Source: a virus
Taxonomy: Duplodnaviria > Caudoviricetes
Strand: one strand, 5' to 3'
DNA length: 64,000 bases
Virus record (IMG/VR): IMGVR_UViG_3300046004_001808
Coordinates: 7,802 to 71,801 of that record
Part shown: positions 1,701 through 56,213 of the stretch, one piece after another
Numbering within the stretch: the first letter of the stretch is position 1
Layout: each line of letters opens with the position of its first letter
Program-made: the position numbers and the translations under genes
The notes under the pieces: model-generated
Databases searched by the model: none
What the model was told of the DNA's origin: nothing
Seen by the model: the letters and a program-made list of their open reading frames with translations, nothing else

Positions 1701-1703
1701 ATA

Positions 1704-2654: not shown

Positions 2655-2658
2655 TTTT

Positions 2659-28639: not shown

Positions 28640-28733
28640 TAGTTTGTCTTTTTTATTTGTAAATTTATTTTTATTGATAAATATTATAAAAAAAACCAAA
28701 ATACTTTACTTCATAAGAAGTATTTATAAATTA

Positions 28734-39096: not shown

Positions 39097-39933
39097 TTAT
39101 GTTATAATTATTTTACTTAAATCATCTTGTAAAAGATAAAATAAATCATCTTGTAAAAGATATGATATAGATGGTGTTGATGTAGGTGTTTGAGTAGGTG
39201 TAGGTGTTTCTGTTGGCGTCGGAGTAGAAGTTTCAGTTGGCGTCGGAGTAGAAGTTTCAGTTGGCGTCGGAGTAGAAGTTTCAGTTGGCGTCGGCGTAGA
39301 AGTTTCAGTTGGCGTCGGCGTAGGTGTTTCAGTTGGCGTCGGAGTAGAAGTTTCAGTTGGCGTCGGCGTAGGTGTTTCAGTTTGAGTAGGCGTAGGAGAA
39401 CTTGTTGTTGTTGTGGTTGTATGATTAATTGTTGTTGTAGTTGTAGTATGATTAATTGTGGTAGTCGTTGTGGTACAAGGACAACATTCTGTAGTTGTTG
39501 TTGTAGTATAAGGACCATTGATACAACAAGGGAATTCTGATACGTAACAACTATCATAAACTAAATCATCAGCAATAAAAGAATCTTGTACATTTATAAA
39601 TAAATCTTCGCGTATTGGTAATATAAGAACTCCATCGGAATTTCTTAACATAAATTGACCAGCGTATCTACCAACTCTATTAGTATCTCTTGGAGTAAAC
39701 TGATAATATATGTAATATTCAGGACCAGCATTCAAGTCAACAAAAGTTTTTTCAACAAACCCTGCAGGTCTTGAACTTATTTTTGGAATACCGGTTTCTA
39801 CATCAACCATTGAGAAGAAAATGGCAGATTCTTCAATCATATCCATAAACTTATTATAGTCGCTTCTTCCGTCTTTAACCACTTGTAATTTTAATACCGG
39901 TAAGGTTGCGTTTTTCTTAATAAAAAAATCCAT
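39097..39933 (-). CDS. BppU-N-like virion protein with a mucin-like Thr/Pro stalk
   Basis: MDFFIKKNATLPVLK...YQF...DT...GRY.GQF...LILP, then CCPCTTTTTT, (TPTPTETS)n and a terminal YLLQDDLFYLLQDD. Confidence 0.65.
   Translation of the reverse strand: MDFFIKKNATLPVLKLQVVKDGRSDYNKFMDMIEESAIFFSMVDVETGIPKISSRPAGFVEKTFVDLNAGPEYYIYYQFTPRDTNRVGRYAGQFMLRNSDGVLILPIREDLFINVQDSFIADDLVYDSCYVSEFPCCINGPYTTTTTTECCPCTTTTTTINHTTTTTTINHTTTTTTSSPTPTQTETPTPTPTETSTPTPTETPTPTPTETSTPTPTETSTPTPTETSTPTPTETSTPTPTETPTPTQTPTSTPSISYLLQDDLFYLLQDDLSKIIIT
39190..39460. repeat. Coding tandem repeats (24-bp TPTPTETS units; duplicated TTTTTTINH)
   Basis: About 7 copies of TTTCAGTTGGCGTCGG(A/C)GTAG(AA/GT)G. Confidence 0.9.
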
Positions 39934-39979: not shown

Positions 39980-41662
39980 TTAACTTTCTTTTCTTAATGA
40001 ACCATCATAATGTTCAAATCTATCGTGTTCTGTTGGAGTTAATAGTAATAAGCCAGGTTTAATGTTACCCATGACAGTTTCTTGGTAAACATATGACATT
40101 AAAGTTTGTTCAAAAGGATGAGACCATTTTGTTTCTAAAAAACATTTATAGTTTCCTTCTCTACCAACAACAATTGGCCAATTACACACATAGACCTCAC
40201 CAGTTGCATATGGAAGTCCTTTATAAGACTTAATGTTCTCAAATTTTGTTTTAGGTGAGTTTGCGTCTAATCCATGTTCAGGCAATTTAGGGTTATTAGG
40301 CCAATGTCTTTGTCTGAAATCTTGTGGAACATTATACCAACTCCATTGAGTACTATTATCACCAAAAAACTCGGTAAAATTAAGTTTTAAAAAATCAAAA
40401 TTTTCTTTTTTAATTATTTCTAAAGATTTGTTATATAAATTTGGTACCCATCTATTAAACCCATTTTTACAAGTCTCATTTTTTTTAGGATAAAATGCCA
40501 TATCATCCTCAAACCAAAAATAATAATCGTGATTTGTTTTATCAAAATGGTCAGCAACAAAAATACGACCACCAACTATACCAATGTTATCTTTTTTAAT
40601 GTGTTCAAACCCATATTGTTCACATAGTTCAATATATCTTGGGGTTGTTGTTAAATCAGTTGAATTATTTAATAAATATTTTTTAGGTTTTTCTATAAAA
40701 TCTTTGTCATAATCTAACATAGATTGTATTAACACTTCTAATTGTTTAGGTGAGTTAAATGTTATAACATATAACCCAACATTATCAGTACTTGGTTGTG
40801 TTTTATTATTTTGTATAAAATCTTTTGTGTATTTTTTTAACTCTTCAAAGAACGGCCAAACTAAACCATTACCCTCAATTTCAAATCTATATATTAAATC
40901 TTTATGTTTATAAGAAAGTATTGTAAATAAACATTCGTCGGCACCCATTAACCCTTCTTTTAACGTATCGTGCATTACTGAATAATAATAGTCATTCATT
41001 TGGTGAATGTTATCTTTACTCCCACCAAAAAAACCGCCTCGACACACATAACTAACGTAATCGGTATTACAATAACGAGCCATATCCTTTCTTTCAAATC
41101 CATGAATCTCTACATTACCATCATAAGGATATGATATCTGAATAAATTTATTATTGTTAAATCGAACATAATTTTCCAAATTATCTAATACATTATCGTG
41201 ACTAAAATAACCTCGATTAACCGTATTAGTTAATCCACCATCAACCCAAAAGAAATATTCACTATTAAATGGATTCACAATTGCGGAATCATTTAACATA
41301 AAAAATTTAGTAAACATCATTGGGTTATAATATTTTAACCCGGCTTGAGGAGATTCAGATAACCATCCTGCAAAATTTTTCCAACTATCTTGGATTCTAA
41401 TTTTTTGAATATCTTCAAAAAAAGGATTCCAAACTTCAAAATCCTCAACATTCTTAATAAATATTTTAGTAGGTTTATCGCCTCTAATTTTTAATACTTC
41501 TTCTTCTAATTCTTGGGGAATCCAAATACACATTTGAACATTTGTTTCTAACATTTCAAAAAACTTTGTTTTGTAATTTGAAAAATCTCTTTTACCCCAA
41601 CCATCAAGATTACCGCGACCTAAATCCCAAAGACCGGTAACTATTGTCACATTACTATTCAT
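39980..41662 (-). CDS. HtrL/YibB-family glycosyltransferase-like domain fused to a GT2-like domain
   Basis: VTIVTGLWDLGR...KFFML...NPFNSEYFFWVDGG...GGFFGG...GADE; second domain LYVITFN...YFWFEDD. Confidence 0.72.
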   Translation of the reverse strand: MNSNVTIVTGLWDLGRGNLDGWGKRDFSNYKTKFFEMLETNVQMCIWIPQELEEEVLKIRGDKPTKIFIKNVEDFEVWNPFFEDIQKIRIQDSWKNFAGWLSESPQAGLKYYNPMMFTKFFMLNDSAIVNPFNSEYFFWVDGGLTNTVNRGYFSHDNVLDNLENYVRFNNNKFIQISYPYDGNVEIHGFERKDMARYCNTDYVSYVCRGGFFGGSKDNIHQMNDYYYSVMHDTLKEGLMGADECLFTILSYKHKDLIYRFEIEGNGLVWPFFEELKKYTKDFIQNNKTQPSTDNVGLYVITFNSPKQLEVLIQSMLDYDKDFIEKPKKYLLNNSTDLTTTPRYIELCEQYGFEHIKKDNIGIVGGRIFVADHFDKTNHDYYFWFEDDMAFYPKKNETCKNGFNRWVPNLYNKSLEIIKKENFDFLKLNFTEFFGDNSTQWSWYNVPQDFRQRHWPNNPKLPEHGLDANSPKTKFENIKSYKGLPYATGEVYVCNWPIVVGREGNYKCFLETKWSHPFEQTLMSYVYQETVMGNIKPGLLLLTPTEHDRFEHYDGSLRKES

Positions 41663-41663
41663 A

Positions 41664-44186
41664 TTATTTTTTTCTAATTATACTGGTATAACTCCATTCA
41701 GGTTTAAGTTTAAAAATTTCACACGATTCAATATTTTTTTCAAGATAATCACATTCTTCATCTGTCATATAATCTGAAACTAGTTTACCTGTTTTATTAA
41801 ACATTTCTAACATATCAAGTGTTATCGTATTTTTTTCAGATTTCCATATTGAATTAACATCATTCTTTACACTAACACTTGTATGTAAATCTTCTAATAC
41901 GTACATACCACCACTTTTTATACTTTTAAATAATTTAGCTAAAACAACTTGTTGGTCTTTCATTGCGTGACTTCCATCGTCAATAAATAAATCTATATCC
42001 ACATTATCATTTGAAAACTCGATTAAAGTATTACCAACATTAACATTAAATTCTAATAATTTAACTCGATTAAAATCATCAATATTAGCCCTATTCATTT
42101 CAAAATCAACACCTATTATTTCCGCATTAGTGAAAAATTCTCTCCATATGTTAATTGATTGTCCTTCATGAACACCTAATTCAACAACTTTTTTTGCAGA
42201 TTCTTTGATTTTATCAAATTCAAGTTGATAAACTTTATCAAAAAAATCATGTCCATAATGTTTATCTGTCGTATATTTTTCTGCTAAACCACTTAATTTT
42301 GAATAATCATAATTTTCGTTTATATTAAAAATTTTATTATGAATCTTATCTATTGTTCTATTTTTAATACTACCATACGCATACGCATGAAAAATAAAAT
42401 TATTATCATTATATTTATTCCAATTAAAACTTCTATTTGAAATAATTTTCATTTTACTAACATACTCACCTCTATCTTTATATAAATGAGTTAATGCGGT
42501 TTGGTCCATCCATAATCTGTTAGAATAAAATCCTTCATGATTTAAATCATGTTCACCAACTTCAGGTCTTAATTCACAATCAATAGGTTTTAGGGTTTTA
42601 CAACAAAAAGCCCAATCATTAAGAAATTTTTTACCCCATTCATTATTTTTTATTAAAAATACTCCAGCATTCATTAGACTATGAGTGCTTTCATCTAATG
42701 AGGCAATAAAATTATAATCTTTGTCAATAAATTCTTCAATTCTAATATTAAAATCAGATATTATAGCATCCGTATCTAAAAATAGTATATATTCAGGGTC
42801 AAAATTTTCAATAACGTCTAATATTAACTTTGGTTTGTACCAAGTAGGTGCAGCACCATTTATGTAATCCGTTATTGTTTGATTTGATTTTTCACAAAAA
42901 TATCCATATCCATTTTCATCACAATATTTCTTATTTATTTTTTCAGCAAATGGTCCATGAGTTAAATTACTTGTGTAATATTGTGCGATGTAAATTTTTT
43001 TAATTTTATTTGTTTTTAAAATTCTAATAATTAATCCTTTTTCGTCCGGTTGGATATATTGAGCTTGAGTATATTCTTTAAAATTCACATCATTTAAAAT
43101 TTCATATTCATAATTTAAATTTTTAATCATTTTTAAAATAATATTATAAGTATTTTCATTAGTTATAACACCATCATTTAAACTAAAAAAGATATTAATT
43201 TCACCGTCTTTTACTATTGTTTTAAGTAAATTATTAAATGTGTTTTTAATTTTTAGGTCATGGGGATTTTTGAAATTAAAAACACATAAATTTTGTATAA
43301 CTTCATCACCATATGTTATTGTTCTATCATATATATCAGATATACTTCTAGCATAACCACCATAGTATTCCCAATTATTTTTATCTCGGTCTAACCCATA
43401 CCAAGCACCTGTCTTACCCTCTGTACCACTAACTCTATTAGTATTTAATTCAATACCTGAAGACCATTCATAATTTAGAATAACTTTTCTATTAGTTTTT
43501 AAATTATTATAGTAATTACTAATAATAAAATCACAATAATACATTCGTTTACCCGTTGAATAATGAATTGTTAGATTTTTTTCACCTAAATTATAAAAAG
43601 CAGACATAGTGTCTATTATATGAAATTTAACTTCCGGTATTTTTGAAAAGTGTTGCATTAATGTGGCATCTTCCAAATGATTAGTTTCATCATGTATATT
43701 TAAAATTTCTTCACATATTTTTTTACTGAAGAATATTCCTCCTCCACCACCTTGTCCGGACCATATAATGTCTTTATCAATAATTTCGTTAAAATATTTC
43801 TCTAAAACAAATGAATTAACATAGGTACCATCGTCAACTCTTAAAATATAATCAAATTCTCTATTTTTTAATAACCATGTTATAGCCCCTTGAAGTTTTT
43901 TAACCATATTAGATGGTTTTTTTTGATGATGTAAATAATAATAGTCGTATGTGTCGGTTTCGGTTAAATGTAAAATTTGATTTTTTTCATCAAAAGATAC
44001 TTCCGGATTGTCTCCATCAAAAAAAATAACTTCAATATTTTTATCCTTTAATTTAGATACCCAAGTATCCATACATGGTAATTTTCTAGTTAAATCAGCT
44101 CTATCTGATTGTATTGGGTCAAATGGTATATATAACTTTTCACTCATATAATTTTTTGAAGTGTAGGCCAAGACAATTAATTTCAT
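41664..44186 (-). CDS. Multidomain GT31-like + GT34-like glycosyltransferase + SAM-dependent sugar O-methyltransferase
   Basis: FDYILRVDDGTYV; WYKPKLI...ILFLDTDAII...MNAGVFLIKN...DQTAL; TDK..H...VVELGV..GQS...IDDGSH...GGMYVLEDLHTS. Confidence 0.78.
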   Translation of the reverse strand: MKLIVLAYTSKNYMSEKLYIPFDPIQSDRADLTRKLPCMDTWVSKLKDKNIEVIFFDGDNPEVSFDEKNQILHLTETDTYDYYYLHHQKKPSNMVKKLQGAITWLLKNREFDYILRVDDGTYVNSFVLEKYFNEIIDKDIIWSGQGGGGGIFFSKKICEEILNIHDETNHLEDATLMQHFSKIPEVKFHIIDTMSAFYNLGEKNLTIHYSTGKRMYYCDFIISNYYNNLKTNRKVILNYEWSSGIELNTNRVSGTEGKTGAWYGLDRDKNNWEYYGGYARSISDIYDRTITYGDEVIQNLCVFNFKNPHDLKIKNTFNNLLKTIVKDGEINIFFSLNDGVITNENTYNIILKMIKNLNYEYEILNDVNFKEYTQAQYIQPDEKGLIIRILKTNKIKKIYIAQYYTSNLTHGPFAEKINKKYCDENGYGYFCEKSNQTITDYINGAAPTWYKPKLILDVIENFDPEYILFLDTDAIISDFNIRIEEFIDKDYNFIASLDESTHSLMNAGVFLIKNNEWGKKFLNDWAFCCKTLKPIDCELRPEVGEHDLNHEGFYSNRLWMDQTALTHLYKDRGEYVSKMKIISNRSFNWNKYNDNNFIFHAYAYGSIKNRTIDKIHNKIFNINENYDYSKLSGLAEKYTTDKHYGHDFFDKVYQLEFDKIKESAKKVVELGVHEGQSINIWREFFTNAEIIGVDFEMNRANIDDFNRVKLLEFNVNVGNTLIEFSNDNVDIDLFIDDGSHAMKDQQVVLAKLFKSIKSGGMYVLEDLHTSVSVKNDVNSIWKSEKNTITLDMLEMFNKTGKLVSDYMTDEECDYLEKNIESCEIFKLKPEWSYTSIIRKK

Positions 44187-44860
44187 TTTTTATAATATTT
44201 TTTTATAATTTTATGCGGATTAGTATTTAAATTTTTAATGTCTAAATCATTGTAAAATTTATCAATATGGTTTTCAAATAAAATAGTTTCATTATCTTCT
44301 AACATTTCAATTTGATAATCACTTATTTTATTTATTTCAATTAAATAATTAACAATATCAACTACTTTAATTTTGTTACCTAAAGTAACGTTAATTTTAC
44401 CATTTATTTTTTTATTAATTAAAAAATCAACAATTTTTGGTAAATCTTCAACATCTATTAAATCTCTATAAGTACCGTTTTTTATTTGTATAACTTTTTT
44501 ATTTAATAATGAATTATACATAAATGGTACTAATTGTTTTGTGTTTTTTGTTCTACCAATAATATTAGGTAATCTTAAAATCAAAAAATTATTTGAATTA
44601 TTTTCAATATATGATTCAATAAATAATTTATGCATAACATAATTTGTGTAATCATACCTTAACACACTTAACGTACTAAAATATATTATCAAATTGTTCT
44701 GATTTTTTTTTAAAACTTGTTTTAGTAAATCATATTCTTTTTTATATTTTAAAATATCATTTTCTGTTGAATCCGCAACCCCTGAAGCAAAAACACATAC
44801 AGATTTAAAATTATAATTTTTAAAAGATTCTGCAATCATCCCATCCCCAATTATGTCCAT
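44183..44860 (-). CDS. NAD-dependent epimerase/dehydratase-like protein (short)
   Basis: IIGDGMIA, FASGV, IYFST, YVMHK (YxxxK), LRLPNIIG and RDLIDVED. Confidence 0.78.
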   Translation of the reverse strand: MDIIGDGMIAESFKNYNFKSVCVFASGVADSTENDILKYKKEYDLLKQVLKKNQNNLIIYFSTLSVLRYDYTNYVMHKLFIESYIENNSNNFLILRLPNIIGRTKNTKQLVPFMYNSLLNKKVIQIKNGTYRDLIDVEDLPKIVDFLINKKINGKINVTLGNKIKVVDIVNYLIEINKISDYQIEMLEDNETILFENHIDKFYNDLDIKNLNTNPHKIIKKYYKK

Positions 44861-44863
44861 ATT

Positions 44864-46111
44864 TTATAAATTACCAGTTAATCTATCACACCATCCTTTT
44901 GATGTGCTATAAGGCCATACAACCCAATATTTTGGTTTAGATGTTGTTTGGAAATCTCTCCAAACTTTACAATACCCATCAGGGTCTTTCATCATACCGT
45001 TTATTTCATTGATGTCAGCATCTTTTCTATAAAGAGTTTCATCTTTTTCATCGTGGAATGCAACAACCCAAAATTCGTAATCTTTTTCCGGAACTTGTTT
45101 AAATGAGATATCAATACAATGTTTGAAAATACTAGCGAAACTTGCCAACCATTCTTCTTCAGTCTCAAATATAGTAGGATTTGGTGCGTATTTTTTATCT
45201 AAAGTATATTGTTGAACAGCTCTATTTGAAAATTTAAGACCTGAATAAATTTCATAATCTTTTAATGTTCTTTCAGTTCCAAATCCATACTTACTAAAAT
45301 CCATATTAACTTCTTCACCATCCATTCCAAAAAGTTGTCTATTCTTTTTGTGAGATAACTCATTCTTTTTACCCCACTCTTTATCGTCATCCCATTGTTT
45401 TACCCTACCTTTACGAGTATACTCATGCCAAATAACTGTTTTATGTGGGTGGAATAAATCATATCCGTGAGTAAATGCTCTAACTGCTATGGAAATTTCT
45501 TCACCATGAAAATAAAACTCAGGGTCGTGTTGAACCTCAACACTAAATTGACCTAATGTGAACGCCATGTGAGCAGAATAAAAACGAGAAGTAATTGGTT
45601 GTTTAAGTTTTTCCCACCCCGGAATTGTTTCAGGTAAGAAGAAGACAGCACCTTCTGGTATAAATCTGTCAAACGACATTCTCCATGGGTCTCTAACTCT
45701 CCCTGCCGGGTCATTATCAGGGTCAAATGAAGAAACATATCCTGTTAATAAAGGTTTGTTAAATCCTTTCTTTTGAAGTTGTTTAATCATTTTGATTAAT
45801 GTATCGTCCCAATCTTTTTCAAATCTCATATGAGAATCTATTTGAAGAGTATATTCCTCACCATCGTATAATTGTTGTACTTGATTTCTTGCCCAACAAA
45901 CACCTTTAGCGTCAGAATATAAAACATCCTTAACTCTAAATCGTTTGTCTTTTTTAAATTTCTCTAAATTATCAAACCCATCTTCAGGGTGATATTGGCG
46001 ACATATACCTATTCTTAAGTTCTTAGGTCTTTTAGCATTTTCCAACATACTATCTAATGTTGGAATAAGTTGGGGGTCACGATAGGAAGCTATCTGTACA
46101 AATATTTTCAT
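44864..46111 (-). CDS. GT60-family polypeptide GlcNAc-transferase (Skp1 Gnt1 / trypanosome mucin OGNT-like)
   Basis: IFVQIASYRDP, AKGVCWAR, YTLQIDSHMRF..DWD and FHGEEISIAVRAFTHGYDLFHP...WHEY. Confidence 0.85.
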   Translation of the reverse strand: MKIFVQIASYRDPQLIPTLDSMLENAKRPKNLRIGICRQYHPEDGFDNLEKFKKDKRFRVKDVLYSDAKGVCWARNQVQQLYDGEEYTLQIDSHMRFEKDWDDTLIKMIKQLQKKGFNKPLLTGYVSSFDPDNDPAGRVRDPWRMSFDRFIPEGAVFFLPETIPGWEKLKQPITSRFYSAHMAFTLGQFSVEVQHDPEFYFHGEEISIAVRAFTHGYDLFHPHKTVIWHEYTRKGRVKQWDDDKEWGKKNELSHKKNRQLFGMDGEEVNMDFSKYGFGTERTLKDYEIYSGLKFSNRAVQQYTLDKKYAPNPTIFETEEEWLASFASIFKHCIDISFKQVPEKDYEFWVVAFHDEKDETLYRKDADINEINGMMKDPDGYCKVWRDFQTTSKPKYWVVWPYSTSKGWCDRLTGNL

Positions 46112-46236
46112 TTATCTCTTGTTTTATACAAAAGATAATAATTTATAATTAAATATAAATAATTTTATTTAATTATTATGACGAAATTGAACTTGATATA
46201 ATAGTATGTTTATTTTATTTTATATAATTAAAAAGT

Positions 46237-46320
46237 CTATGTTAAGTTCACACTTTCAACTCCCACTATTGTACAACCATCATCATCCACTATTAACCCT
46301 AATCTACAACCTATCACCAT
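46237..46320 (-). pseudogene. 27-aa remnant resembling the end of the N-terminal domain of the adjacent mucin-like gene
   Basis: MVIGCRLGLIVDDDGCTIVGVESVNLT* compared with [16 protein letters not shown] in 46425-48272. Confidence 0.4.
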
Positions 46321-46424
46321 TTTTTTTTTATTTATCATATCTTATAATTATAAGATATAAGTGTTTTTTGTGTATGTTTTTAATAATATAGGGTCATTAA
46401 AAAACTAATAAAGTTTCGATAATA

Positions 46425-48272
46425 TTATTCTGGACATGTTGTACCTTCATTACATATCCATAATAATACACCAGTAGGGTCAGTTGTTAATAACATGTTA
46501 TAAGTGCTTATAATTTGACTTGTTACAAATGGAGTTTCTAATGATGGGTCTGTATATAGATAACCACCTATAGTTGGTTGCTCATTTATTGGAAGATAAA
46601 CAATTTGGATAGTTGGAGTTCCATCAAGATAACAAACACCAGTATTACAATATGCACTACCAAGCTCTACAGTAAATTGATATGATGTCGGAGTCGCAGT
46701 TGATGTTGGTGTTCCCGTATTTGTTGGTGTATTTGTTGGAGTTTGAGTTGCGGTATTTGTTGGTGTTAATGTTGGTGTATTAGTTGGCGTATTAGTTGGC
46801 GTTAATGTAGGCGTGTTTGTTGGAGTAGGTGTTGGTGGAAGACATTGAGTACAACCACTATATTGACCTTGACCAAAATAATTTATTAAATTTAATGTGT
46901 TCGTACCACCCCAAGTAATGAGAGGGTAAATTGAACCAGCAATTCCTTTAACATTCCAACAATTCCCTAAATTATCAATAACAGTATAAGAATACCAAGT
47001 AGAAAAAGGTCCACTAGTATAAGGTAAATATTCAATCGGTAATACCATTTCAGCGGTTGGTGATGCAGTAGGGTTAGAACAAGGGGCAAGTGACGCTATA
47101 AATGTTGTTTGTGTACTTGTTGGTGTTAATGTTGGTGTAGAAGTTAATGTAGGTGTATTAGTTGGTGTTAATGTTGGAGTATTTGTTGGAGTTTGAGTTG
47201 CGGTATTTGTTGGAGTTAATGTTGGTGTTGGAGTATTTGTTGGAGTTTGAGTTGCGGTATTTGTTGGAGTTAATGTTGGTGTTGGAGTATTTGTTGGAGT
47301 TTGAGTTGCGGTATTTGTTGGAGTTAATGTTGGTGTTGGAGTATTTGTTGGCGTTTGAGTTGCGGTATTTGTTGGAGTTAATGTTGGTGTTGGAGTATTT
47401 GTTGGCGTTTCTGTAGGTGTATTAGTTGGAGTTAATGTTGGTGTAGAAGTTAATGTAGGTGTGTTAGTTGGAGTATTTGTTGGCGTTTCTGTAGGTATAT
47501 TAGTTGGTGTTAATGTTGGCGTAGAAGTTAATGTAGGTGTATTAGTTGGTGTTAATGTTGGCGTAGAAGTTAATGTAGGCGTATTAGTTGGAGTTAATGT
47601 TGGCGTAGAAGTTAATGTAGGTGTATTAGTTGGAGTTAATGTTGGCGTAGATGTTAATGTTGGCGTGTTAGTTGGCGTTAATGTTGGTGTTTGCGTATTT
47701 GTTGGAGTTGATGTTGGTGTAGATGTTAATGTAGGTGTAATAGTCGGAGTATTTGTTGGAGTTGATGTTGGAGTTGGCGTCGGAGTCTCACTTGGTATTG
47801 GTACACAAGTATTATCAATACATATCTCATTAATAATTATGTTTACCCCTACCTCAGCCGATGGTAATCTACCACAATAATATAAGATAGTCCCTGATTG
47901 AATAACGCTGTTTAACACAACGTTATTACATAGGGTTAAACTAAAGTTTAAAGCCCCCGAAGTTGTATTTTCAAATGATATACAATTACAAACAACAACC
48001 ATTGTTGGGGTCGGAGTTGCTGTTGTTGTTGGTGTCGGAGTTGGTGTTCCCGGACAACTTTGTAAAATAAATTCATCACAACCAATTGAATCGGTAACAA
48101 CGACTAAAACTTGGTTAGCCCCATATAGTTCTATTGGAATAGTCAATAAAAGTGTTGGAGGAACAGAAACAACGCCGGTCGCAACCACATAACAATACGT
48201 TAATGTTAAATCACATATTGATATATCAAATGGTGAGTGTCCGTTTAAACTGGTTATTTCTATTACTTGCAT
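46425..48272 (-). CDS. Mucin-like Thr/Pro-repeat virion protein with Cys-containing globular domains
   Basis: About 230 aa of continuous ([12 protein letters not shown]) repeats between small Cys-rich domains. Start moved to the ATG at 48272 (MQVIEITS), which follows a TATTTATT motif. Confidence 0.8.
47110..47790. repeat. Coding tandem repeats (54-bp and 42-bp units)
   Basis: [18 protein letters not shown] about x4 and [14 protein letters not shown] about x4-5; the periodicity also shows in the antisense ORFs. Confidence 0.9.
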
Positions 48273-48375
48273 TACAATAAATATAGATAGAATTATTTTA
48301 CCATAAATACTTAACAATTTTAATATTTACTATGGAACTTTATTAGTAATTTATTATTTTTGTAATAAAAAAAAT

Positions 48376-51300
48376 ATGTCATTAAACATCAAACATTACG
48401 ATTTTATTGAAATTGGTACTTCAGATTTTGATACTTTAATTGAAACTTCTAATGACAAGACTGTCGGTATTAGTATTGAACCTATAAAATATTACATAAA
48501 TAGATTACCAGATAAACAGAACATCATTAAAGTCCAAGCGGCGTTATCAACAACTGATGGTGAAGTTGATGTATATTATATCGATGATTGGAAAATTGAA
48601 GAAAATAACTTGCCTTGGTGGGTTAGAGGAAGTAACTCAATAAATAATCCCCACCCTTTTGCGATTAAAGAATTAGGTGAAGAACTATACAATAGTTTGG
48701 TCACCATTGAAAAAGTACCAACGATTAGTTGGAAAACGTTAATTAACACATATAATATTGGGTCGGTTGATTATTTAAAAATTGACACTGAAGGTCATGA
48801 CCACATTATCTTTAGAGATTTTTTGGACTATTGTAAGGAACACTCTTTTCCAATACCGAGTAAAATAACGTTAGAATATCACGATGGTGTTTCAAACAAA
48901 ATTGAGATTGATAAGTTAGTTTCAGAACTATCGGATTATCAAATGATAAGACATGTTAGTGATATTACATTAATTAAACCTCAAATACCAAGAGTGATTC
49001 ATCAAACATATAAAACTAATGATTTACCAACTGAAATAATTGAAGTAGTTCAAAGGTTAAAAGATATGAACCCAACATTTGACTATAAATTCTACAATAA
49101 TGATGATTGTGTTAAATTTATTAAAGAAAATTATGATGAAGAAACCCTTAATCTTTATTTAAGTATTAACCCAAATTATGGGTCGGCAAGAGCTGATTTA
49201 TTTAGATATCTTTTAATGTATAAAGTTGGTGGTGTTTATTTAGATATTAAAAGTTGTACTACAAAACCATTAGAAGAAGTCTTATTACCAACTGACGAGT
49301 ATCTATTAACACATTGGGAGGGTCTAGATTGGGCGGATGAATTAAAATATTATTTTGGTGAATTTCAAAATTGGCACATCATCTGTAAACCAAACCACCC
49401 ATTTTTAGAAAATGTTATTGAAGTAGTTAAAGATAATATTAGAAATTACATTGGTGGCGCGGATAAGAATTCGGTATTAAGAGTTACCGGACCAATCGCT
49501 TATAGCAAAGGAATTTTAAACTTGTTGAATATCCACAAAACAAATCGTTTTGATTCTCCTGTTAGAGAATTTTTATTAGAAAATGAAATTGGATTACAAT
49601 ATGTGTCAACACCTGTTCATCATCACAAAATAATTGAAAAATCATTCTCAAGAAAAGAACCTTTAATATTAAAAAATAAAGTAGAAAAATCATATCTATT
49701 ATTAGCAACTGAAAATTATTTTGATGTTGCTAAAATGTGTATTAAATCAATTCGTGAATATAGTGATTTACCCATTTTCTTATATCTAATTAACTCTGAT
49801 AAAGTGATAAACATTAAAGATGTGGTCACAATAATGTGGGATTTAGACTTAGTTGATGACAATTCCAATAGATACATTCAAGAGGGCGAAAATTTCTATA
49901 TTAATAGAACCAATAAAACAATTTACAACATCTTAATACAAAAACCATTAATCACTAAAGACGTTTTATCTAAATACACTAAAACGGTTGCGTTTGTTGA
50001 TTGCGATTCAATTGCAACACCATATGTTGATAGAATCTTTGACTTATACGATAATGATAAAGATTATCCTTATTTTGTTGAAGGGATTTATGATTATCTA
50101 CACGTAGGTGAACGAGGTGGTGCGATGACTAGAGATGATATGTCAACCACGTTGGAATACCCGGCATGTGAATTATTTAATGTTAATCAATATGTTAGAG
50201 AAAAATACCGACAAACAGGTTATTATGTATCAAATGAAAAATGTGTTGATTTTTTATCTGAATGGTATCAAATGTGTTCTCACCCTGAAGTATTAAATAA
50301 TATCCCATATTATGCGGCGTATAATGAGGAGACCATCTTAAATGTGTTATTGTGGAAAAAATTAATATTTGATGGGTTACCTTACATTTATGCTAACGGA
50401 AATTTAGAATTAATAGATAATATTTATTCAAATTATAATATTAATGAAGAAAGTTTATGGGTTAAGATTCCAAACAAGAAAGATGGTTTGTTATTTATTC
50501 ACGGAGAAAAAAATATTTTAGAAATGGGTAAAATGATATCAAAAATCAAAAACCATCATAAAGAAAAAATTAGAGTTTTATTCTTGGCACCACATCTATC
50601 AACCGGAGGAATGCCATCATTTCTATTAAAAAGGATTGAATCATTATTGGAATATTATGAAGATAAAACAGAACTTTTTGTTGTGGAATATTCAAATCAT
50701 AGTGACCATTTTGTTGTTCAAAAAAATAGAATTAAAGAATTAGTACCTTCGTCACATTTTTGGACGTTAGGTGAAGATAAGAATGAATTAAAGAAAATTA
50801 TTGAGGAAAATTATTTTGACATTATCCATTTAGATGAAATGATTGAAGCGTTTGATTCTCATAATAAATTGTCAAACAACTTAATAAATTTTATTTATAA
50901 AAATGACCGAACATGGAGAGTCGTGGAAACTTGTCATAACATAATGTTTCAACCGGATAAAGAAAAAATATTTCATCCTGACGCATATTCATTTTGTTCT
51001 CCTTTTCATAAAGAAGTTACATTCGTTAATATGCCATCATATGGTGAACTAATTGAATTTCCCTACACACCTACAATCATATTATCAAAAAAAAGTAGTA
51101 AAGAAAAATTAGGTTTAGACCCAAACAAAACTCACATTATAAATGTTGGATTATGGACATCGGGTAAAAATCAAGGTGAGGGTGTTGAGATTGCTAGATT
51201 AGTTGAAGGGGTTTACCCTGAATTAGAATTTCATTTTATTGGGAATCAAGCTCCTAACTTTCAAAATTATTGGGAACCTATAATGAAAGACCTGCCAACC

Positions 51301-52719
51301 AATGTTAGAGTATGGGGTGAGAAAGATAATGTTAATGACTTTATGATGGCAGCCGATGTGTTAATGTTTAACTCAACTTGGGAATGTAACCCATTAGTAT
51401 TAAGAGAAGGAATATCTTATGGGTTAAAAATCTTATCAAGAAATTTACCACAATATATGGATATGTTTACACCGTATATTAAACCAATTTATGGTGATAT
51501 TTTTGATATGAAAAATCAACTTTTAGATTTAATTAATGATAATATTAATTATGGATTTCCATCATATGGGGTTAAAGAATTTGCTGAAAAAAATTACCAA
51601 TTATATCAACAAATACTAAATCAACCTATAAAAAAACAAACAATGATTGACGAAGAAGTACAAGTACTCCAACATTTTGTTAAGGAACCCTTCTTAGAAA
51701 TAAAAGGTAGTGGTGATAAAGATTATAATGTAAAATTCTTTGATGAAAATGGTGTTTGTCATTATGAGAACACAATAAAACCAAATCATTGGGTTAAATT
51801 AAGTCGTAGTTATTACACCAAATGGAGAGCAGTTGTGAGTAGAGATAATATTGTAATTTATGACAATACATTGGATTTAACTAATAAGAGAGTTTATATC
51901 TCATTTGAGAGTAAATCATTAGGGGATTCAATTGCTTGGATTCCATATGTGTTAGAGTTTAAAAAGAAACATAATTGTAAAGTAATTGTGTCAACCTTTT
52001 GGAATCATTTGTTTGAAAATGAATATCCGGAGATTGAATTTGTGGTGCCCGGAGTTACAACACATAATCTTTATGCTATGTACTCAATTGGGTGGTTTTA
52101 TGATAAAAACAAAGAACCAATTTTACCAAACACAATACCTTTACAACAAACTATTACAAATATTTTAGGTTTAGATTTTGAAGAAATTAAACCTACAATA
52201 CATAGTACCGTTAACACAAGACCTTATAAACAGAAATATATAACTATCGCAACCAATTCAACTGCGGGATGTAAATTTTGGACAAGAGAAGGTTGGCAAG
52301 AACTAATTAACTATCTTCATAATTTAGGTTATAAAATTATTAATGTGTCAAAAGAAGATAACCCATTTTATAATGCAAATAAAATTAAAAACACATCAAT
52401 TCATCATACTATGAATGTGATTAATCATAGTGAATTCTTTATTGGTTTATCTAGTGGTTTATCTTGGTTAGCGTGGGGTTTAGGTAAAAAAGTTGTTATG
52501 ATTTCTAACTTTACAAATGAAGACCATGAGTTTATACTTAATTGTACTAGAATTGTAAACCGTTCAGTTTGTAATGGATGTTGGAATAAACCTGAATTCA
52601 CCTTTGATAAAGGGGATTGGAATTGGTGTCCCATCAATAAAGGGACTGAAAAACAATTTGAATGTCATACATCAATAACGCCGGAAATGGTTATTAAACA
52701 AATACAACATTTACTATAA
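48376..52719 (+). CDS. Five-domain enzyme: FkbM-like methyltransferase + GT32 + GT-A domain + GT4 + TibC/Aah-like protein heptosyltransferase
   Basis: DFIEIGTSDF..SIEP..LKIDTEGHD; IPRVIHQTYK..ADLFRY..GGVYLDIK; VAFVDCDSI; LAPHLSTGGMP..NSTWECNPLVLREG; SLGDSIAW..FFIGLSSGLSWLAW..VCNGCWN..NWCP..FECHTSIT. Confidence 0.82.
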   Translation: MSLNIKHYDFIEIGTSDFDTLIETSNDKTVGISIEPIKYYINRLPDKQNIIKVQAALSTTDGEVDVYYIDDWKIEENNLPWWVRGSNSINNPHPFAIKELGEELYNSLVTIEKVPTISWKTLINTYNIGSVDYLKIDTEGHDHIIFRDFLDYCKEHSFPIPSKITLEYHDGVSNKIEIDKLVSELSDYQMIRHVSDITLIKPQIPRVIHQTYKTNDLPTEIIEVVQRLKDMNPTFDYKFYNNDDCVKFIKENYDEETLNLYLSINPNYGSARADLFRYLLMYKVGGVYLDIKSCTTKPLEEVLLPTDEYLLTHWEGLDWADELKYYFGEFQNWHIICKPNHPFLENVIEVVKDNIRNYIGGADKNSVLRVTGPIAYSKGILNLLNIHKTNRFDSPVREFLLENEIGLQYVSTPVHHHKIIEKSFSRKEPLILKNKVEKSYLLLATENYFDVAKMCIKSIREYSDLPIFLYLINSDKVINIKDVVTIMWDLDLVDDNSNRYIQEGENFYINRTNKTIYNILIQKPLITKDVLSKYTKTVAFVDCDSIATPYVDRIFDLYDNDKDYPYFVEGIYDYLHVGERGGAMTRDDMSTTLEYPACELFNVNQYVREKYRQTGYYVSNEKCVDFLSEWYQMCSHPEVLNNIPYYAAYNEETILNVLLWKKLIFDGLPYIYANGNLELIDNIYSNYNINEESLWVKIPNKKDGLLFIHGEKNILEMGKMISKIKNHHKEKIRVLFLAPHLSTGGMPSFLLKRIESLLEYYEDKTELFVVEYSNHSDHFVVQKNRIKELVPSSHFWTLGEDKNELKKIIEENYFDIIHLDEMIEAFDSHNKLSNNLINFIYKNDRTWRVVETCHNIMFQPDKEKIFHPDAYSFCSPFHKEVTFVNMPSYGELIEFPYTPTIILSKKSSKEKLGLDPNKTHIINVGLWTSGKNQGEGVEIARLVEGVYPELEFHFIGNQAPNFQNYWEPIMKDLPTNVRVWGEKDNVNDFMMAADVLMFNSTWECNPLVLREGISYGLKILSRNLPQYMDMFTPYIKPIYGDIFDMKNQLLDLINDNINYGFPSYGVKEFAEKNYQLYQQILNQPIKKQTMIDEEVQVLQHFVKEPFLEIKGSGDKDYNVKFFDENGVCHYENTIKPNHWVKLSRSYYTKWRAVVSRDNIVIYDNTLDLTNKRVYISFESKSLGDSIAWIPYVLEFKKKHNCKVIVSTFWNHLFENEYPEIEFVVPGVTTHNLYAMYSIGWFYDKNKEPILPNTIPLQQTITNILGLDFEEIKPTIHSTVNTRPYKQKYITIATNSTAGCKFWTREGWQELINYLHNLGYKIINVSKEDNPFYNANKIKNTSIHHTMNVINHSEFFIGLSSGLSWLAWGLGKKVVMISNFTNEDHEFILNCTRIVNRSVCNGCWNKPEFTFDKGDWNWCPINKGTEKQFECHTSITPEMVIKQIQHLL

Positions 52720-53396
52720 TGAACTTAACTAATTTTGATTGGGGATGGATGGAGCAAAGTGAAGAAGGTTTGTTTCATAAAGAACAAATAACTCAAGAAA
52801 CATTTATTGATAAAATATATGAAAAGTTTTTTGAAGTTTCTGAGGGTGATATTGTTTTAGATTTTGGGGCTAGTGTTGGACCATTTACTTATAGTATTTT
52901 ATCAAAAAAACCAAAACACGTATATTGTCTTGAACCGAGTGAATATGAATTTCCTACATTAGTTAATAACACTGTCGGTTATCCGGTTACACCAATATTG
53001 AAGGGTATCTCAAATACCAACACATATACTGACTGTAATGACATTTATGGGGGTTCAAAACAAATGGAAGGAATCACTTTTAAAAAACTTTGTGAGTTAT
53101 ACAATTTAAAAACCATAGATTTTTTAAAAACAGATTGTGAGGGTGGTGAATACGATATTTTTAATGATGAGAATTTTGAATTTATTAAAAATAATGTTAA
53201 AAAAATTACAGGTGAATGGCATTTAGGTACACCAATTTTAAAAGAAAAATTTAAAAAATTTAGAGACACTTACTTACAATATTTTATAAATGTTGAGGTA
53301 TACTCGATTGATGGTGTTAATGTAAAATGGAATTTAATGTCTGATAATTTTTTAGAACACTATACAGAAATAATAATACACATATATAACGTTTAA
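52719..53396 (+). CDS. FkbM-family methyltransferase
   Basis: VLDFGASVGPF, CLEP, IDFLKTDCEGGEY and GEWH. Confidence 0.88.
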   Translation: MNLTNFDWGWMEQSEEGLFHKEQITQETFIDKIYEKFFEVSEGDIVLDFGASVGPFTYSILSKKPKHVYCLEPSEYEFPTLVNNTVGYPVTPILKGISNTNTYTDCNDIYGGSKQMEGITFKKLCELYNLKTIDFLKTDCEGGEYDIFNDENFEFIKNNVKKITGEWHLGTPILKEKFKKFRDTYLQYFINVEVYSIDGVNVKWNLMSDNFLEHYTEIIIHIYNV

Positions 53397-53400
53397 TTAA

Positions 53401-54219
53401 ATGAAACAAATATTTTTTAACTCTTCCCTACCCAGAAGTGGAAGTACATTAATTCAGAATTTATTAGCTCAAAATCCTGAAATTTACTCAACACCAACAT
53501 CAGGGTTGGTGGATTTTGTAATCGCCTGTAAAAACAATTACAATCACTCTCAAGCATTTCAAGCACAAAATCAAGATGAAATGACCAAAGCGTTTGTTGA
53601 TTTTTGTCAAGATGGTATGCAAGGTTATTTTAAAAGACTTACTGACAAACCAATCGTAATAGATAAAAGTAGAGAATGGGGTATCAATTATAGTTTATTG
53701 GAAATGATAAATCCAAACCCAAAAATTATTTGTATGGTTAGAGATGTTAGAGCGGTCTATAGTTCAATGGAAAAGAATTTTAGAAAAAATCCTCATAGGG
53801 AAAACGGGATTCAAAGACCGGCAGAATTAATTGGTACGACATTAAATAAACGTATTGATATTTGGGCGGGTGGAGTACCTGTTGGAACTTCTATTGATAG
53901 ATTATTAGATATTATACAACAAGGAATTGACGATAAAATGTTATTTATTCGTTACGAAGATTTAATGAGTAATCCTGAACAAGAAATGTCGAGAATATAC
54001 GAATATTTGGGTGTACCGAATTATGATGGGCATGATTTTGAGAACATATCACAATTAACTCATGAAGATGATAGGGTACATGGGATATATGGTGACCATA
54101 AGTTAAGACCAAAATTTGAAAAAAAACCGGATGACTATATGGAAGTTTTAGGTTATGAACTATCAATGAATATTAAGAATCATTACAAATGGTTTTATGA
54201 CTATTTTGGTTATGTATAA
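53401..54219 (+). CDS. Sulfotransferase
   Basis: 5'-PSB SLPRSGSTL, DKSR, 3'-PB MVRDVRAVYSS, IRYEDL..NPE. Confidence 0.9.
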   Translation: MKQIFFNSSLPRSGSTLIQNLLAQNPEIYSTPTSGLVDFVIACKNNYNHSQAFQAQNQDEMTKAFVDFCQDGMQGYFKRLTDKPIVIDKSREWGINYSLLEMINPNPKIICMVRDVRAVYSSMEKNFRKNPHRENGIQRPAELIGTTLNKRIDIWAGGVPVGTSIDRLLDIIQQGIDDKMLFIRYEDLMSNPEQEMSRIYEYLGVPNYDGHDFENISQLTHEDDRVHGIYGDHKLRPKFEKKPDDYMEVLGYELSMNIKNHYKWFYDYFGYV

Positions 54220-54238
54220 AATTTTAAAAAAATAAAGA

Positions 54239-54691
54239 ATGGCAATATATTGGTTTACAGGTCAACCAGGCGCTGGTAAGACCACATTAGCAAAACACGT
54301 TAAAGATTATCTACAACCAAGTAATGTTATATTAGTAGATGGTGATGACATTAGAGATGTCTTCCAAAATAAAGATTACTCTGAAATAGGGAGAAGAAAA
54401 AATATTGAGAAAGCTCAAGACATTTCATTATTTTTAGATTCAAAAGGATTTGATGTGATAGTCTCATTAGTTTCACCTTATAAAGACCAACGAGATGAAT
54501 TTAAAAACAATCATAACGTATTAGAATTTTACATTCATACTGAAGATGTTAGAGGTAGAGAAGATTATCATGTATCAAACTATGAACCACCTACTGAGAA
54601 TTTTGTGGACATTAATACGACAAATGTTATTGAACAAAAATCTGTTGGGGAAATAATAAACAAAATTATTGAATTTAAAACAAATGGGTAA
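54239..54691 (+). CDS. cysC: Adenylylsulfate (APS) kinase
   Basis: WFTGQPGAGKTT, DGDDIR, DYS..GR..N, VSLVSPY and YEPP. Confidence 0.9.
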   Translation: MAIYWFTGQPGAGKTTLAKHVKDYLQPSNVILVDGDDIRDVFQNKDYSEIGRRKNIEKAQDISLFLDSKGFDVIVSLVSPYKDQRDEFKNNHNVLEFYIHTEDVRGREDYHVSNYEPPTENFVDINTTNVIEQKSVGEIINKIIEFKTNG

Positions 54692-56187: not shown

Positions 56188-56213
56188 AAAAAACCCTCAT
56201 ATGAGGGTTTTTT
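56188..56213. terminator. Bidirectional intrinsic terminator
   Basis: Perfect palindrome AAAAAACCCTCATATGAGGGTTTTTT between convergent genes. Confidence 0.88.

Follow-up and report, generated by a model that had tools for sequence, protein, structure and literature searches.

The window analysed here, a 64-kb stretch of DNA, originates from an uncultured lake-water jumbo phage and encodes a GT60 glycosyltransferase just after a fibre-like gene rich in Thr and Pro. An earlier note on this DNA had described the two genes as an initiating enzyme-substrate pair for eukaryote-style mucin O-glycosylation. Both were found again, on the minus strand and in the order described, but they are less close than the note implied, with a spacer of 313 bp (46112-46424) between them. 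Twenty sequencing runs labelled as lake-water metagenome contained at least 63% of the sampled words, and the sequencing-run search listed no RNA runs containing the phage sequence. A promoter/terminator scan of 44000-48600 revealed sites no more numerous than in shuffles. The genes of the island and the segments of the Thr/Pro-rich protein are as follows.

39097..39933, minus strand: P0121, 278 aa, BppU_N-like N-terminal domain followed by a poly-Thr and Thr/Pro C-terminal tail (translation)
39980..41662, minus strand: HtrL_YibB-like protein, 560 aa, conserved GT60 partner (PF09612, 7.5e-15)
41664..44186, minus strand: multi-domain enzyme, 840 aa, GT34/GT8-like with a C-terminal methyltransferase (PF05637, 1.3e-15; methyltransferase matches; phrog_21658)
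44183..44860, minus strand: short SDR/epimerase-like protein of the variable cassette, 225 aa (PF01370, E 1.2e-6, match confined to the C-terminal part of the profile)
44864..46111, minus strand: GT60/PF11397 glycosyltransferase, 415 aa, soluble (PF11397, phrog_24687, alignment, AF2 model, structure searches)
46425..48272, minus strand: Thr/Pro-rich fibre-like protein, 615 aa (ORF, N-terminal alignment, composition)
46428..47099, minus strand: its variable distal part, with m3 (392-473), the third Thr/Pro block (474-533) and m4 (534-615) (segmentation, homology)
47100..47810, minus strand: its main Thr/Pro tandem-repeat stalk, residues 155-391, TPTxTPTxT-type, proposed O-glycosylation target (segmentation)
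47811..48272, minus strand: its N-terminal region, residues 1-154, with m1 (1-69), a Thr/Pro linker (70-93) and m2 (94-154)
48376..52719, plus strand: divergent multi-enzyme, 1447 aa, with FkbM methyltransferase, GT32-like, GT4-like and C-terminal TibC/Aah-type protein O-heptosyltransferase domains (Pfam, TIGR04414)
52719-53396, plus strand: FkbM methyltransferase
53401-54219, plus strand: sulfotransferase
54239-54691, plus strand: APS-kinase-like gene
54669-55094, plus strand: nucleotidyltransferase-like gene

The Thr/Pro-rich gene has its stop at 46425, and the ORF listing opens its frame at TTG 48317; we take ATG 48272, the end coordinate given in the earlier note, as the real start, because the N-terminus that it gives (MQVIEITS...) is the conserved one among homologues. 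The protein contains 183 Thr and 91 Pro in 615 aa and is organised in three Thr/Pro blocks (residues 70-93, 155-391 and 474-533; 321 aa in total, with 150 Thr and 72 Pro, i.e. 22% Pro) that alternate with four Cys-bearing globular modules. Its main block measures 237 aa, in good agreement with the about 230 aa of T-P-T repeats noted before. The DNA of the blocks is made up of tandem repeats with periods of 54, 42, 78 and 84 (e.g. period 54 with 5.9 copies and 91% matches). Read assembly over the repeat in four runs gave contigs that break inside it, and many joints with short sides.

An alignment of 25 homologues (40-87% identity) showed the alternating Thr positions of the m1-m2 linker and six Cys of m2 to be invariant or nearly so. 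The AF2 model of the N-terminal region (pLDDT 78) consists of two small beta-sandwiches and a disordered linker. Fold searches with m1/m2 returned generic FN3/Ig-like sandwiches only (Z of at most 6.4), and all BFVD matches were uncharacterised phage proteins. Homologues of m1 and m2 occur in 49 and 43 related loci, respectively; of all loci compared, this phage alone has m3 and m4, and the equivalent distal part of one complete relative carries five DUF285 repeats. Thr/Pro linkers are frequent in glycosylated and unglycosylated extracellular proteins alike.

Family and fold of the GT60 enzyme

The product of 44864-46111 matched the PF11397 HMM with an E-value of 3.2e-71 and 241.1 bits (cut-off 21), its sole Pfam match, and phrog_24687 ('glycosyltransferase') over its full length (2.3e-166). 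PF11397 positions 2-43 and 95-350 of 352 were covered, with positions 44-94 unmatched. The three motifs from which family membership had been proposed are all in place, namely IFVQIASYRD at residues 3-12, IDSHMRF at 91-97 and GEE at 203-205. A GT-A catalytic domain (approximately residues 1-300) is followed by a beta-rich C-terminal domain (approximately 300-415) that is conserved in bacterial homologues, and D92-x-H94 (D92-S93-H94), E204, E205 and H229 are invariant in an alignment of 44 diverse homologues. According to PMC7185993, a DxH metal motif replaces DxD in GT27 and GT60, two families that share polypeptide Ser/Thr O-glycosylation; D92-S93-H94 of the phage enzyme has this form. The protein begins directly at the first beta-strand with neither a signal nor an anchor such as the N-terminal membrane anchor of GT27 initiators, and therefore works in the cytoplasm, the compartment in which phage proteins are synthesised. 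No ricin-type lectin domain was found in it by Pfam.

PDB sequence searches with the protein and with the alignment profile yielded no glycosyltransferase and only chance-level matches, T7 RNA polymerase among them, so that a structure search was needed. With the AF2 model (pLDDT 95.3), every Foldseek match listed up to rank 48 was a polypeptide GalNAc-transferase (E about 4e-11). The best 29 VIA entries likewise belonged to this class without exception (Z 19.4-22.6; about 275 residues aligned, rmsd 3.2-4.0 A, 12-16% sequence identity), and the first entry after them was a GT2-type enzyme (Z 18.0). The modelled fold is closest to the GT27 polypeptide GalNAc-transferases that initiate mucin O-glycosylation. 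A non-protein GT2 as best structural match had been named in the earlier note as evidence against its proposal; since the best matches are protein-directed GT27 enzymes and not generic GT2, this objection falls away.

The GT60 family comprises 4668 clusters at E<=0.001, with at least 591 bacterial genomic matches, and the phage gene lies nested among those of Bacteroidota. The term 'eukaryote-style' therefore misleads, as this is a large bacterial family; that GT60 is present in both prokaryotes and protists has already been stated in PMC7185993. Among 151 genomes from the order of a Saprospiraceae MAG there was one strong PF11397 match, that MAG itself, and with so patchy a distribution no firm host call is made. 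In the literature searched, we found no published function or chemistry for any phage or bacterial GT60; the family appears in one preprint only as an entry in a list of viral CAZy genes. The 'Moraphage' paper (PMC12619734) was considered and set aside; it mentions glycosyltransferases in general, and a link to the present phage lineage is not established.

Gene neighbourhoods in phages and bacteria

Eighty related viral loci were compared, 76 of which were usable in having at least 700 bp upstream of the enzyme. A co-oriented Thr/Pro-rich frame ends within 400 bp before the enzyme in 62 of these 76 loci, and 73 have such a frame within 4 kb. The upstream frame ranges from 175 to 1783 aa across relatives, with conserved N-terminal modules, and stops about 55-70 bp before the enzyme gene. 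Reciprocally, with a single Thr/Pro protein as query, GT60 was found downstream in 15/15 loci with the N-terminal modules. Part of this synteny is inherited, the 80 phage loci being closely related to one another (73-96% identity).

Under a strict criterion the pairing recurs beside distant bacterial homologues. Of 79 bacterial loci, 15 have a Thr/Pro run of at least 90 aa no more than 1.5 kb from GT60, whereas two control genomes (800 kb in total) would predict 2.2-3.8 (far flanks hold 0.012 such runs per kb). A looser criterion of at least 30 aa gave no enrichment (27 observed, 31 expected). Our first enrichment statistic, which compared runs of at least 30 aa in near and far flanks, was dropped as not meaningful for high-GC genomes, since such frames are common in two high-GC controls (0.07-0.215 per kb). 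The bacterial neighbours are diverse and include proteins with a PqqD domain and a Thr/Pro tail, with an Rv2525c-like domain and Thr/Pro or (PPPST)n, and T9SS-sorted proteins with Thr/Pro/Ser repeats. RRxF/RRxL-type motifs are visible in bacterial Thr/Pro neighbours, with scores below the cut-offs of the twin-arginine signal profiles (TIGR01409, 11.7-15.4 bits, cut-off 16.7; PF10518, 18.2, cut-off 22.7). A Thr/Pro run inside the enzyme itself was seen in one of 150 GT60 representatives (P0137), whose N-terminal Cys module has no similarity to m1/m2. The pairing of GT60 with Thr/Pro genes is more than chance, because such Thr/Pro runs occur in only two ORFs of the whole 64-kb window and the pairing recurs in relatives.

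Further genes of the island accompany the pair to different degrees. The HtrL_YibB-like partner was found by tblastn in 74/80 viral and 29/79 bacterial loci, and follows GT60 in loci L088 and L106; its C-terminal half is GT2-like, as judged from a Pfam GT2 match on the bacterial homologue in L088. The N-terminal domain of P0121 occurs in 67/80 loci, in 32 of them with a Thr/Pro run of at least 30 aa in the same frame. Residues 1-130 of P0121 have no Pfam match, and their resemblance to a BppU_N cluster in the Atlas structure search (TM 0.67/0.80) is a lead only. Rarer are the 840-aa GT34/GT8-like enzyme (18/80 loci), the TibC/Aah-type C-terminal domain (4/80) and the SDR/epimerase-like gene (3/80). 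Residues 1115-1445 of the 1447-aa protein scored 276.5 bits with TIGR04414 (NCBIfam equivalog cut-off 200; E 3.1e-82), which by this profile match places a second protein O-glycosyltransferase family divergently beside the Thr/Pro gene. General profile searches found no autotransporter family among the window ORFs. The plus-strand genes of 52719..55094 possibly have glycan-tailoring functions.

Proposed role of the island

Judging from the gene content, the phage probably sugar-coats its own proteins via GT60, since an enzyme of a mucin-initiator family is encoded just after a Thr/Pro-rich fibre-like gene. On balance we lean towards the view that GT60 starts O-glycosylation on the Thr/Pro stalks of fibre-like phage proteins and that partner enzymes extend the chain, building on the observed family membership, fold, motifs, synteny and bacterial recurrence of the pairing. 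Most likely, a soluble, cytoplasmic, retaining GT-A enzyme would place the first sugar on threonine hydroxyls during infection; this sugar, taken from a presumed donor, might be HexNAc by analogy with the GT60 family. The acceptors would be Thr/Pro repeat stalks of phage proteins that are presumably parts of the virion, the main one being the fibre-like protein encoded just upstream, whose role as GT60 substrate is supported but unproven. A second candidate acceptor is likely P0121, four genes downstream of GT60, with its BppU_N-like domain and Thr/Pro tail. The HtrL/GT2 partner and the fast-changing transferases, methyltransferases and sulfotransferase would then, in the order assumed here, lengthen and decorate the chain, so that phage appendages would carry a mucin-like brush of sugars that differs from strain to strain. 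The enzyme-substrate pair of the earlier note is thus partly supported, by a true PF11397/GT60 enzyme with a GT27-like fold and by a pairing that is kept in the phage clade and recurrent in bacteria. The system is wider than a pair, however, since the conserved HtrL/GT2 partner, another protein with a Thr/Pro tail and a variable cassette of enzymes also belong to it.

More tentatively, GT60 and HtrL/GT2 might form an undescribed, widespread prokaryotic module for mucin-type O-glycosylation in the cytoplasm, which would act on exported surface proteins in bacteria and would have been captured from hosts by jumbo phages at least twice to produce glycan-coated fibres. Bacterial targets could be proteins that are sorted by the T9SS, that bear Tat-like signals or that belong to contractile-injection/type VI loci. 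In the phages, length-variable Thr/Pro fibres would bear strain-specific methylated and sulfated glycans, resulting in a viral glycocalyx, perhaps as a shield for the particle or in mimicry of surface glycoproteins of the host. If true, mucin-type O-glycosylation, in the sense of a dedicated initiator acting on Pro/Thr tandem repeats, would not be solely an invention of the eukaryotic secretory pathway, and bacteria, together with their large phages, would possess a soluble cytoplasmic system of this type. It would also provide a first function for thousands of prokaryotic GT60 genes, account for the hypervariable sugar-enzyme cassettes beside length-variable fibre genes in these phages, and offer compact soluble enzymes to make mucin-like glycoproteins in bacteria.

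It appears unlikely that the island instead serves to build or alter a non-protein glycan during infection (host lipopolysaccharide, capsule or a different polymer of the envelope), with a sugar or lipid as the acceptor of the GT60-like enzyme and the Thr/Pro gene as a mere neighbour. Although the island is rich in enzymes that characterise envelope glycan loci (GT9, GT4, GT25, GT32, HtrL_YibB and FkbM methyltransferases), profile searches found in it neither a membrane anchor nor a flippase, a polymerase or a lipid-carrier enzyme. Polysaccharide enzymes are the next-best structural matches (Z 16-18), but the best are protein-directed, and TIGR04414 as well is a family of protein O-glycosyltransferases. 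Relatives carry the JGI name 'glycosyltransferase involved in cell wall biosynthesis', and a long Thr/Pro neighbour is missing from 64 of the 79 bacterial loci; in the phages, however, the Thr/Pro gene has kept its position despite large changes in length.

We also consider it improbable that GT60 modifies other phage or host proteins (capsid, tail, baseplate or a host factor) and that the Thr/Pro tracts are plain flexible linkers. The adjacency in 62/76 phage loci, the enrichment of long Thr/Pro runs by bacterial homologues and the invariant or nearly invariant alternating Thr of the m1-m2 linker argue against this explanation. It draws support from phages XacN1 and Xoo-sp13, in which the enzyme does not lie beside a Thr/Pro gene, from one complete relative with 15 Thr/Pro-run frames across its genome of which only five are near GT60, and from mycobacteriophages, in which capsid and tail-tube C-termini are glycosylated according to PMC12619734. 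A Gnt1-like (Skp1 pathway) transfer of GlcNAc onto hydroxyproline of the Pro-rich tracts after host hydroxylation is very improbable, even though the Pfam description places hydroxyproline-directed Gnt1 in GT60 and the tracts are 22% Pro, as PF13640 prolyl hydroxylase was found in 0/5 related phage records (three of them at least 90% complete) and no window ORF matched a prolyl 4-hydroxylase (2OG-Fe(II) oxygenase), a host enzyme being conceivable, and as Thr, which is favoured as acceptor by these results, is twice as abundant as Pro and conserved in the linker.

Comparison with known systems

Members of GT60 add alpha-GlcNAc to Thr of mucins, as do the mucin initiators of Trypanosoma cruzi, or to hydroxyproline of Skp1, as does Gnt1 of Dictyostelium and Toxoplasma. 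With these protist enzymes the phage protein shares a PF11397 match well above cut-off and the DxH metal motif; like Gnt1 it is soluble and cytoplasmic, and like the T. cruzi enzymes it is placed beside a Thr-rich repeat protein. It differs in belonging to a phage/bacterial lineage nested in Bacteroidota, in the unmatched PF11397 positions 44-94 and in the extra beta-rich C-terminal domain, and the prolyl hydroxylase partner of the Skp1-type pathway was not found in the five phage relatives or the window. The GT27 GalNAc-transferases of animals and Toxoplasma are the best structural match, share the DxH motif and act on Pro/Thr-rich tandem repeats, as the phage enzyme putatively does. However, identity to them is only 12-16%, and the phage enzyme is cytoplasmic rather than in the Golgi, with neither membrane anchor nor, by Pfam, a ricin-type lectin domain.

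GtfA/GtfB perform cytoplasmic O-glycosylation of serine-rich repeat proteins. In these and in the TibC/Aah systems, which heptosylate autotransporter adhesins, soluble transferases act on Ser/Thr-rich repeats before export or assembly and share a locus with their substrate, as may be the case in the phage, whose island also contains the TIGR04414 TibC/Aah-type domain above cut-off. The initiating family in the phage is GT60, however, with no autotransporter or accessory Sec system, and the product would be assembled or released by the phage. Mycobacteriophage virion glycosylation resembles the process proposed here in that phage-encoded transferases glycosylate the structural proteins of the phage itself; the sites described in PMC12619734 are C-termini of capsid and tail-tube subunits, with no mucin-like repeat fibre.

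In a collection of 50,697 phage records, GT60 homologues were found only in the Xanthomonas jumbo phages XacN1 (ORF334) and Xoo-sp13 and in the Stenotrophomonas phages CM1 and RAS14 (46-48% identical across at least 98% of their length), and these enzymes group with Burkholderiales genes, in contrast to the Bacteroidota affiliation of ours. As in the present phage, their GT60 gene lies near a DNA polymerase gene and is followed by further sugar enzymes, but it is annotated only as 'glycosyltransferase' and has no adjoining Thr/Pro gene. Elsewhere in their genomes, XacN1 and Xoo-sp13 contain 36 and 22 (TP)5-type stretches, respectively, compared to 0 in the control.

Sequence and fold of the GT60 enzyme

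Our analysis leads us to lean, with modest confidence, towards a phage-encoded cytoplasmic O-glycosylation system as the best-supported reading of this region. The GT60 enzyme would initiate on Thr residues of Thr/Pro stalks in the phage's own fibre-like proteins, and the chains would be extended by a conserved HtrL/GT2 enzyme together with a variable cassette. The genes concerned are:

39097-39933, minus strand: BppU_N-like protein, 278 aa (candidate N-domain, Atlas TM 0.67/0.80)
39980-41662, minus strand: HtrL_YibB-like protein (the HtrL/GT2 enzyme), 560 aa
44864-46111, minus strand: GT60 enzyme, 415 aa, PF11397
46425-48272, minus strand: Thr/Pro protein, 615 aa

An earlier note, made from the sequence alone, had proposed GT60 and a TPT mucin-like gene as an initiating enzyme-substrate pair. 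The motifs it named are present (IFVQIASYRD at residues 3-12, IDSHMRF at 91-97, GEE at 203-205), the PF11397 profile matches with an E-value of 3.2e-71 (241 bits vs a cut-off of 21), and the Thr/Pro gene is indeed co-oriented with the GT60 gene and upstream of it on the minus strand. Among 1.84 billion cluster representatives, 4668 clusters matched the GT60 family at E<=0.001, 953 of them at E<=1e-30; some members reach 1000-2461 aa and match in as many as four separate stretches. An alignment of 44 full-length, diverse homologues shows no variation at D92, H94, E204, E205 and H229. A published GT-A enzyme analysis (PMC7185993) describes replacement of DxD by DxH in GT27 and GT60. As a protein without signal or anchor, the enzyme is cytoplasmic.

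The AF2 model (pLDDT 95.3, pTM 0.89) begins with a GT-A domain, behind which, starting near residue 300, lies a beta-rich one. PDB sequence searches with the enzyme gave no transferase match. In Foldseek, all matches listed up to rank 48 were polypeptide GalNAc-transferases (E about 4e-11). Upon VIA re-alignment the top 29 entries again belonged to this class (Z 19.4-22.6 over about 261-280 residues, rmsd 3.2-4.0 A), and not to the non-protein GT2 enzymes that the earlier note had named as the match that would speak against its proposal. Next came a GT2-type enzyme (Z 18.0) and polysaccharide synthases (16-17.4), so that generic GT-A enzymes trail by no more than 1.5-4.5 Z units. We consider a non-protein glycan target for the GT60 enzyme unlikely, and neither a flippase nor a polymerase or lipid-carrier enzyme was seen in the surrounding sugar-enzyme island. 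Our literature searches brought up no publication on what a phage or bacterial GT60 does.

The Thr/Pro protein in this and related phages

We placed the start of the Thr/Pro protein at ATG 48272 and not at TTG 48317, because 'MQVIEITS' is the conserved N-terminus of its homologues. The protein contains 183 Thr and 91 Pro, with Thr/Pro blocks at residues 70-93, 155-391 and 474-533 between four Cys-bearing globular modules (m1 to m4, from N- to C-terminus). The DNA of the blocks consists of tandem repeats with periods of 54, 42, 78 and 84, and a spacer of 313 bp separates the gene from the GT60 gene. Module m1 is kept in 49 loci and m2 in 43, the window itself included, while m3 and m4 occur in this phage only among the loci compared. 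Across 25 aligned homologues (40-87% identity) m2 has six Cys, four invariant and two nearly invariant, and of the alternating Thr in the short m1-m2 linker two (T80 and T84) never vary and three (T82, T86 and T88) hardly do. AF2 predicts two small beta-sandwiches with a disordered linker between them (pLDDT 78); fold searches with this N-terminal region returned only uncharacterised phage proteins and generic FN3/Ig-like sandwiches, at the background level of Z<=6.4. The orthologous gene in a complete relative carries five DUF285 repeats, and other Thr/Pro proteins of that relative contain SprB repeats, a Fib_succ_major domain and a PEGA domain. From these sequence features we infer that the protein is laid out like a phage fibre or adhesin, its N-terminus being conserved, its stalk differing in length and its binding-type tip variable, and that it is a putative part of the virion.

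Synteny was examined in the 80 best loci of 393 confirmed IMG/VR relatives (73-96% identity), of which four with less than 700 bp upstream were left out of the upstream counts. A co-oriented Thr/Pro-rich frame ends within 400 bp of the enzyme gene in 62 of the 76 remaining loci, 40 of the 62 with m1/m2 homology, and such a frame lies within 4 kb in 73 and is missing in three. Complete frames measure 175-1783 aa, with 30-1261 residues in Thr/Pro runs. Reciprocally, all 15 loci found by the N-terminal modules have GT60 downstream. As the loci come from close kin, none of these counts stands for independent events. Within 8-kb flanks, an HtrL_YibB-like gene is present in 74/80 loci and a BppU_N-like gene in 67/80, and 32 of these 67 encode a Thr/Pro run of at least 30 aa. 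More variable are an 840-aa enzyme (18/80), an SDR-like gene (3/80) and a TibC-like domain (4/80). In the BppU_N-like protein of the window, the candidate N-domain gives way to stretches of six to seven consecutive Thr and to (TPTPTE/S)n repeats, and the motif 'YLLQDDL' is present in duplicate at the C-terminal end.

PHROG matches to tail sheath, tail tube, baseplate hub and wedge, DNA polymerase, helicases and ribonucleotide reductase indicate a large contractile-tailed phage. The parent record is 71.8 kb long with an estimated completeness of about 24%, and related records of up to 308-322 kb are rated complete. The GC content is 25-41% in 2-kb windows (mean about 31%), and 20 public runs labelled lake-water metagenome contain at least 63% of the region's sampled words. 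Three further large genes were noted:

8544-15443, minus strand: giant baseplate-region protein, 2299 aa, without PHROG or Pfam family match
15762-20777, minus strand: giant baseplate-region protein, 1671 aa, likewise without match
25313-28699, minus strand: tail sheath, 1128 aa, covered by sheath profiles at residues 837-1126 only

GT60 homologues were found in only four isolate phages, XacN1, Xoo-sp13, CM1 and RAS14 (46-48% identity). In the two contexts inspected, XacN1 and Xoo-sp13, no Thr/Pro gene is adjacent to the homologue. Genome-wide these phages encode 36 and 22 (TP)5-type stretches, respectively (reversed control pattern, 0), several of those in XacN1 belonging to large proteins encoded immediately behind the tail sheath genes.

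Bacterial homologues and origin of the gene

In bacteria the GT60 family is widespread: a pattern scan that took a single genome for each species gave at least 624 stretches, at least 591 of them confirmed. Neighbours were analysed in 79 loci. Thr/Pro runs of at least 30 aa are not in excess near GT60 (27 vs 31 expected, at a background of 0.07-0.215 six-frame ORFs per kb in 800 kb of two high-GC control genomes). Runs of at least 90 aa lie within 1.5 kb of GT60 in 15/79 loci from roughly a dozen lineages, where 2.2 (pooled; Poisson P 1e-8) or 3.8 (worst control genome; P 1e-5) are expected, the P values ignoring relatedness and being based on two control genomes; the far flanks, with 0.012 per kb, do not rise above background. 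That GT60 has other protein targets and the Thr/Pro tracts are plain linkers we hold to be as unlikely as a non-protein glycan target.

Several kinds of neighbour were found. In Sphingomonadaceae and an actinomycete, the upstream gene encodes an Rv2525c-like domain with Thr/Pro linkers or (PPPST)n. A Saprospiraceae MAG and a Lewinellaceae MAG have, divergent from GT60, proteins of Thr/Pro/Ser repeats whose T9SS sorting domain scores above the cut-off in the former and below it in the latter. In three other lineages the gene directly downstream encodes a small protein in which a Thr/Pro body follows an RRxF-type N-terminus; the scores of these proteins with twin-arginine profiles are below the cut-offs. 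GT60 further occurs in a contractile-injection-system locus of Sphingomonas sp. BE123 (L121; two tandem copies, CIS_TMP 2.6e-88) and in a type VI secretion locus of Paraburkholderia tuberum (L130), with TssF, Rhs and a VgrG bearing a Thr/Pro stretch. An HtrL_YibB gene is detected by tblastn in 29/79 loci, and lies 3' of the enzyme gene in those of Saprospiraceae and Gemmatimonadaceae. In three Gemmatimonadaceae a PqqD domain with a Thr/Pro tail is encoded directly upstream (PF05402, 26.9-32.5 bits vs 23.4):

L103, 7215-7937: PqqD-Thr/Pro protein
L105, 7284-7886: PqqD-Thr/Pro protein
L106, 7314-7952: PqqD-Thr/Pro protein

These proteins join the PqqD-type peptide-chaperone domain to a hydrophobic segment containing RR and to the tail, and their genes precede those of GT60 and HtrL. 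It is odd to meet a RiPP-style recognition domain on what may be a substrate for glycosylation. Another contig (L102, GC 0.35), binned as Planctomycetaceae TMED10, has a GT60 homologue (50% identity) that is preceded, at 2-3442, by the gene for a protein of more than 1147 aa in which (TP)n linkers set small Cys-bearing modules apart. The contig may be a binned marine phage, since the module style matches that of the window's Thr/Pro protein.

In a quick maximum-likelihood tree of 124 rows (built without duplicates, rows containing stops and rows of under 330 aligned residues), 59 viral rows and one 1.2-kb MAG contig nest inside Bacteroidota, next to Chitinophagaceae and then Saprospiraceae and Lewinellaceae; the enzymes of XacN1 and Xoo-sp13 stand beside Burkholderiales (SH-aLRT 99). 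The pattern fits an exchange of each phage lineage with the kind of bacteria that it infects, the branching of this midpoint-rooted tree giving no direction of transfer. GT60 appears patchy in the order of the Saprospiraceae MAG, as only the MAG itself, one of 151 genomes, gave a strong match.

The sugar-enzyme island

Further genes in and around the island, which also contains methyltransferases and other transferases, are:

48376-52719, plus strand: divergent five-domain enzyme, 1447 aa, with a TIGR04414 domain at residues 1115-1445
53401-55094, plus strand: sulfotransferase (PF13469, 4.3e-22), then APS-kinase-like and nucleotidyltransferase-like ORFs
56213-57547, minus strand: GT25-family transferase (PF01755, E 1.7e-20)
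58667-64000, minus strand: giant collagen triple-helix repeat protein of more than 1777 aa, running off the window (PF01391, E 2.2e-17)

A hydroxyproline-directed, Gnt1-like reaction is very improbable, and a PF13640 prolyl hydroxylase was found in none of five relatives. The short, overlapping APS-kinase-like and nucleotidyltransferase-like ORFs each cover one half of the single profile phrog_10255 (positions 3-92 and 133-229 of 230). They could be one gene that has been split or frameshifted, or else a PAPS/ADP-sugar supply to the island.

The GT25 family includes collagen galactosyltransferases. The GT25-family transferase lies two genes from the collagen-repeat protein, and the two may form a second enzyme-substrate pair. 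A protein heptosyltransferase is unusual in a phage. The TIGR04414 domain of the five-domain enzyme passes the equivalog cut-off (276.5 vs 200 bits) for the TibC/Aah autotransporter O-heptosyltransferases of NCBIfam, and these are the island's second family known for cytoplasmic protein glycosylation.
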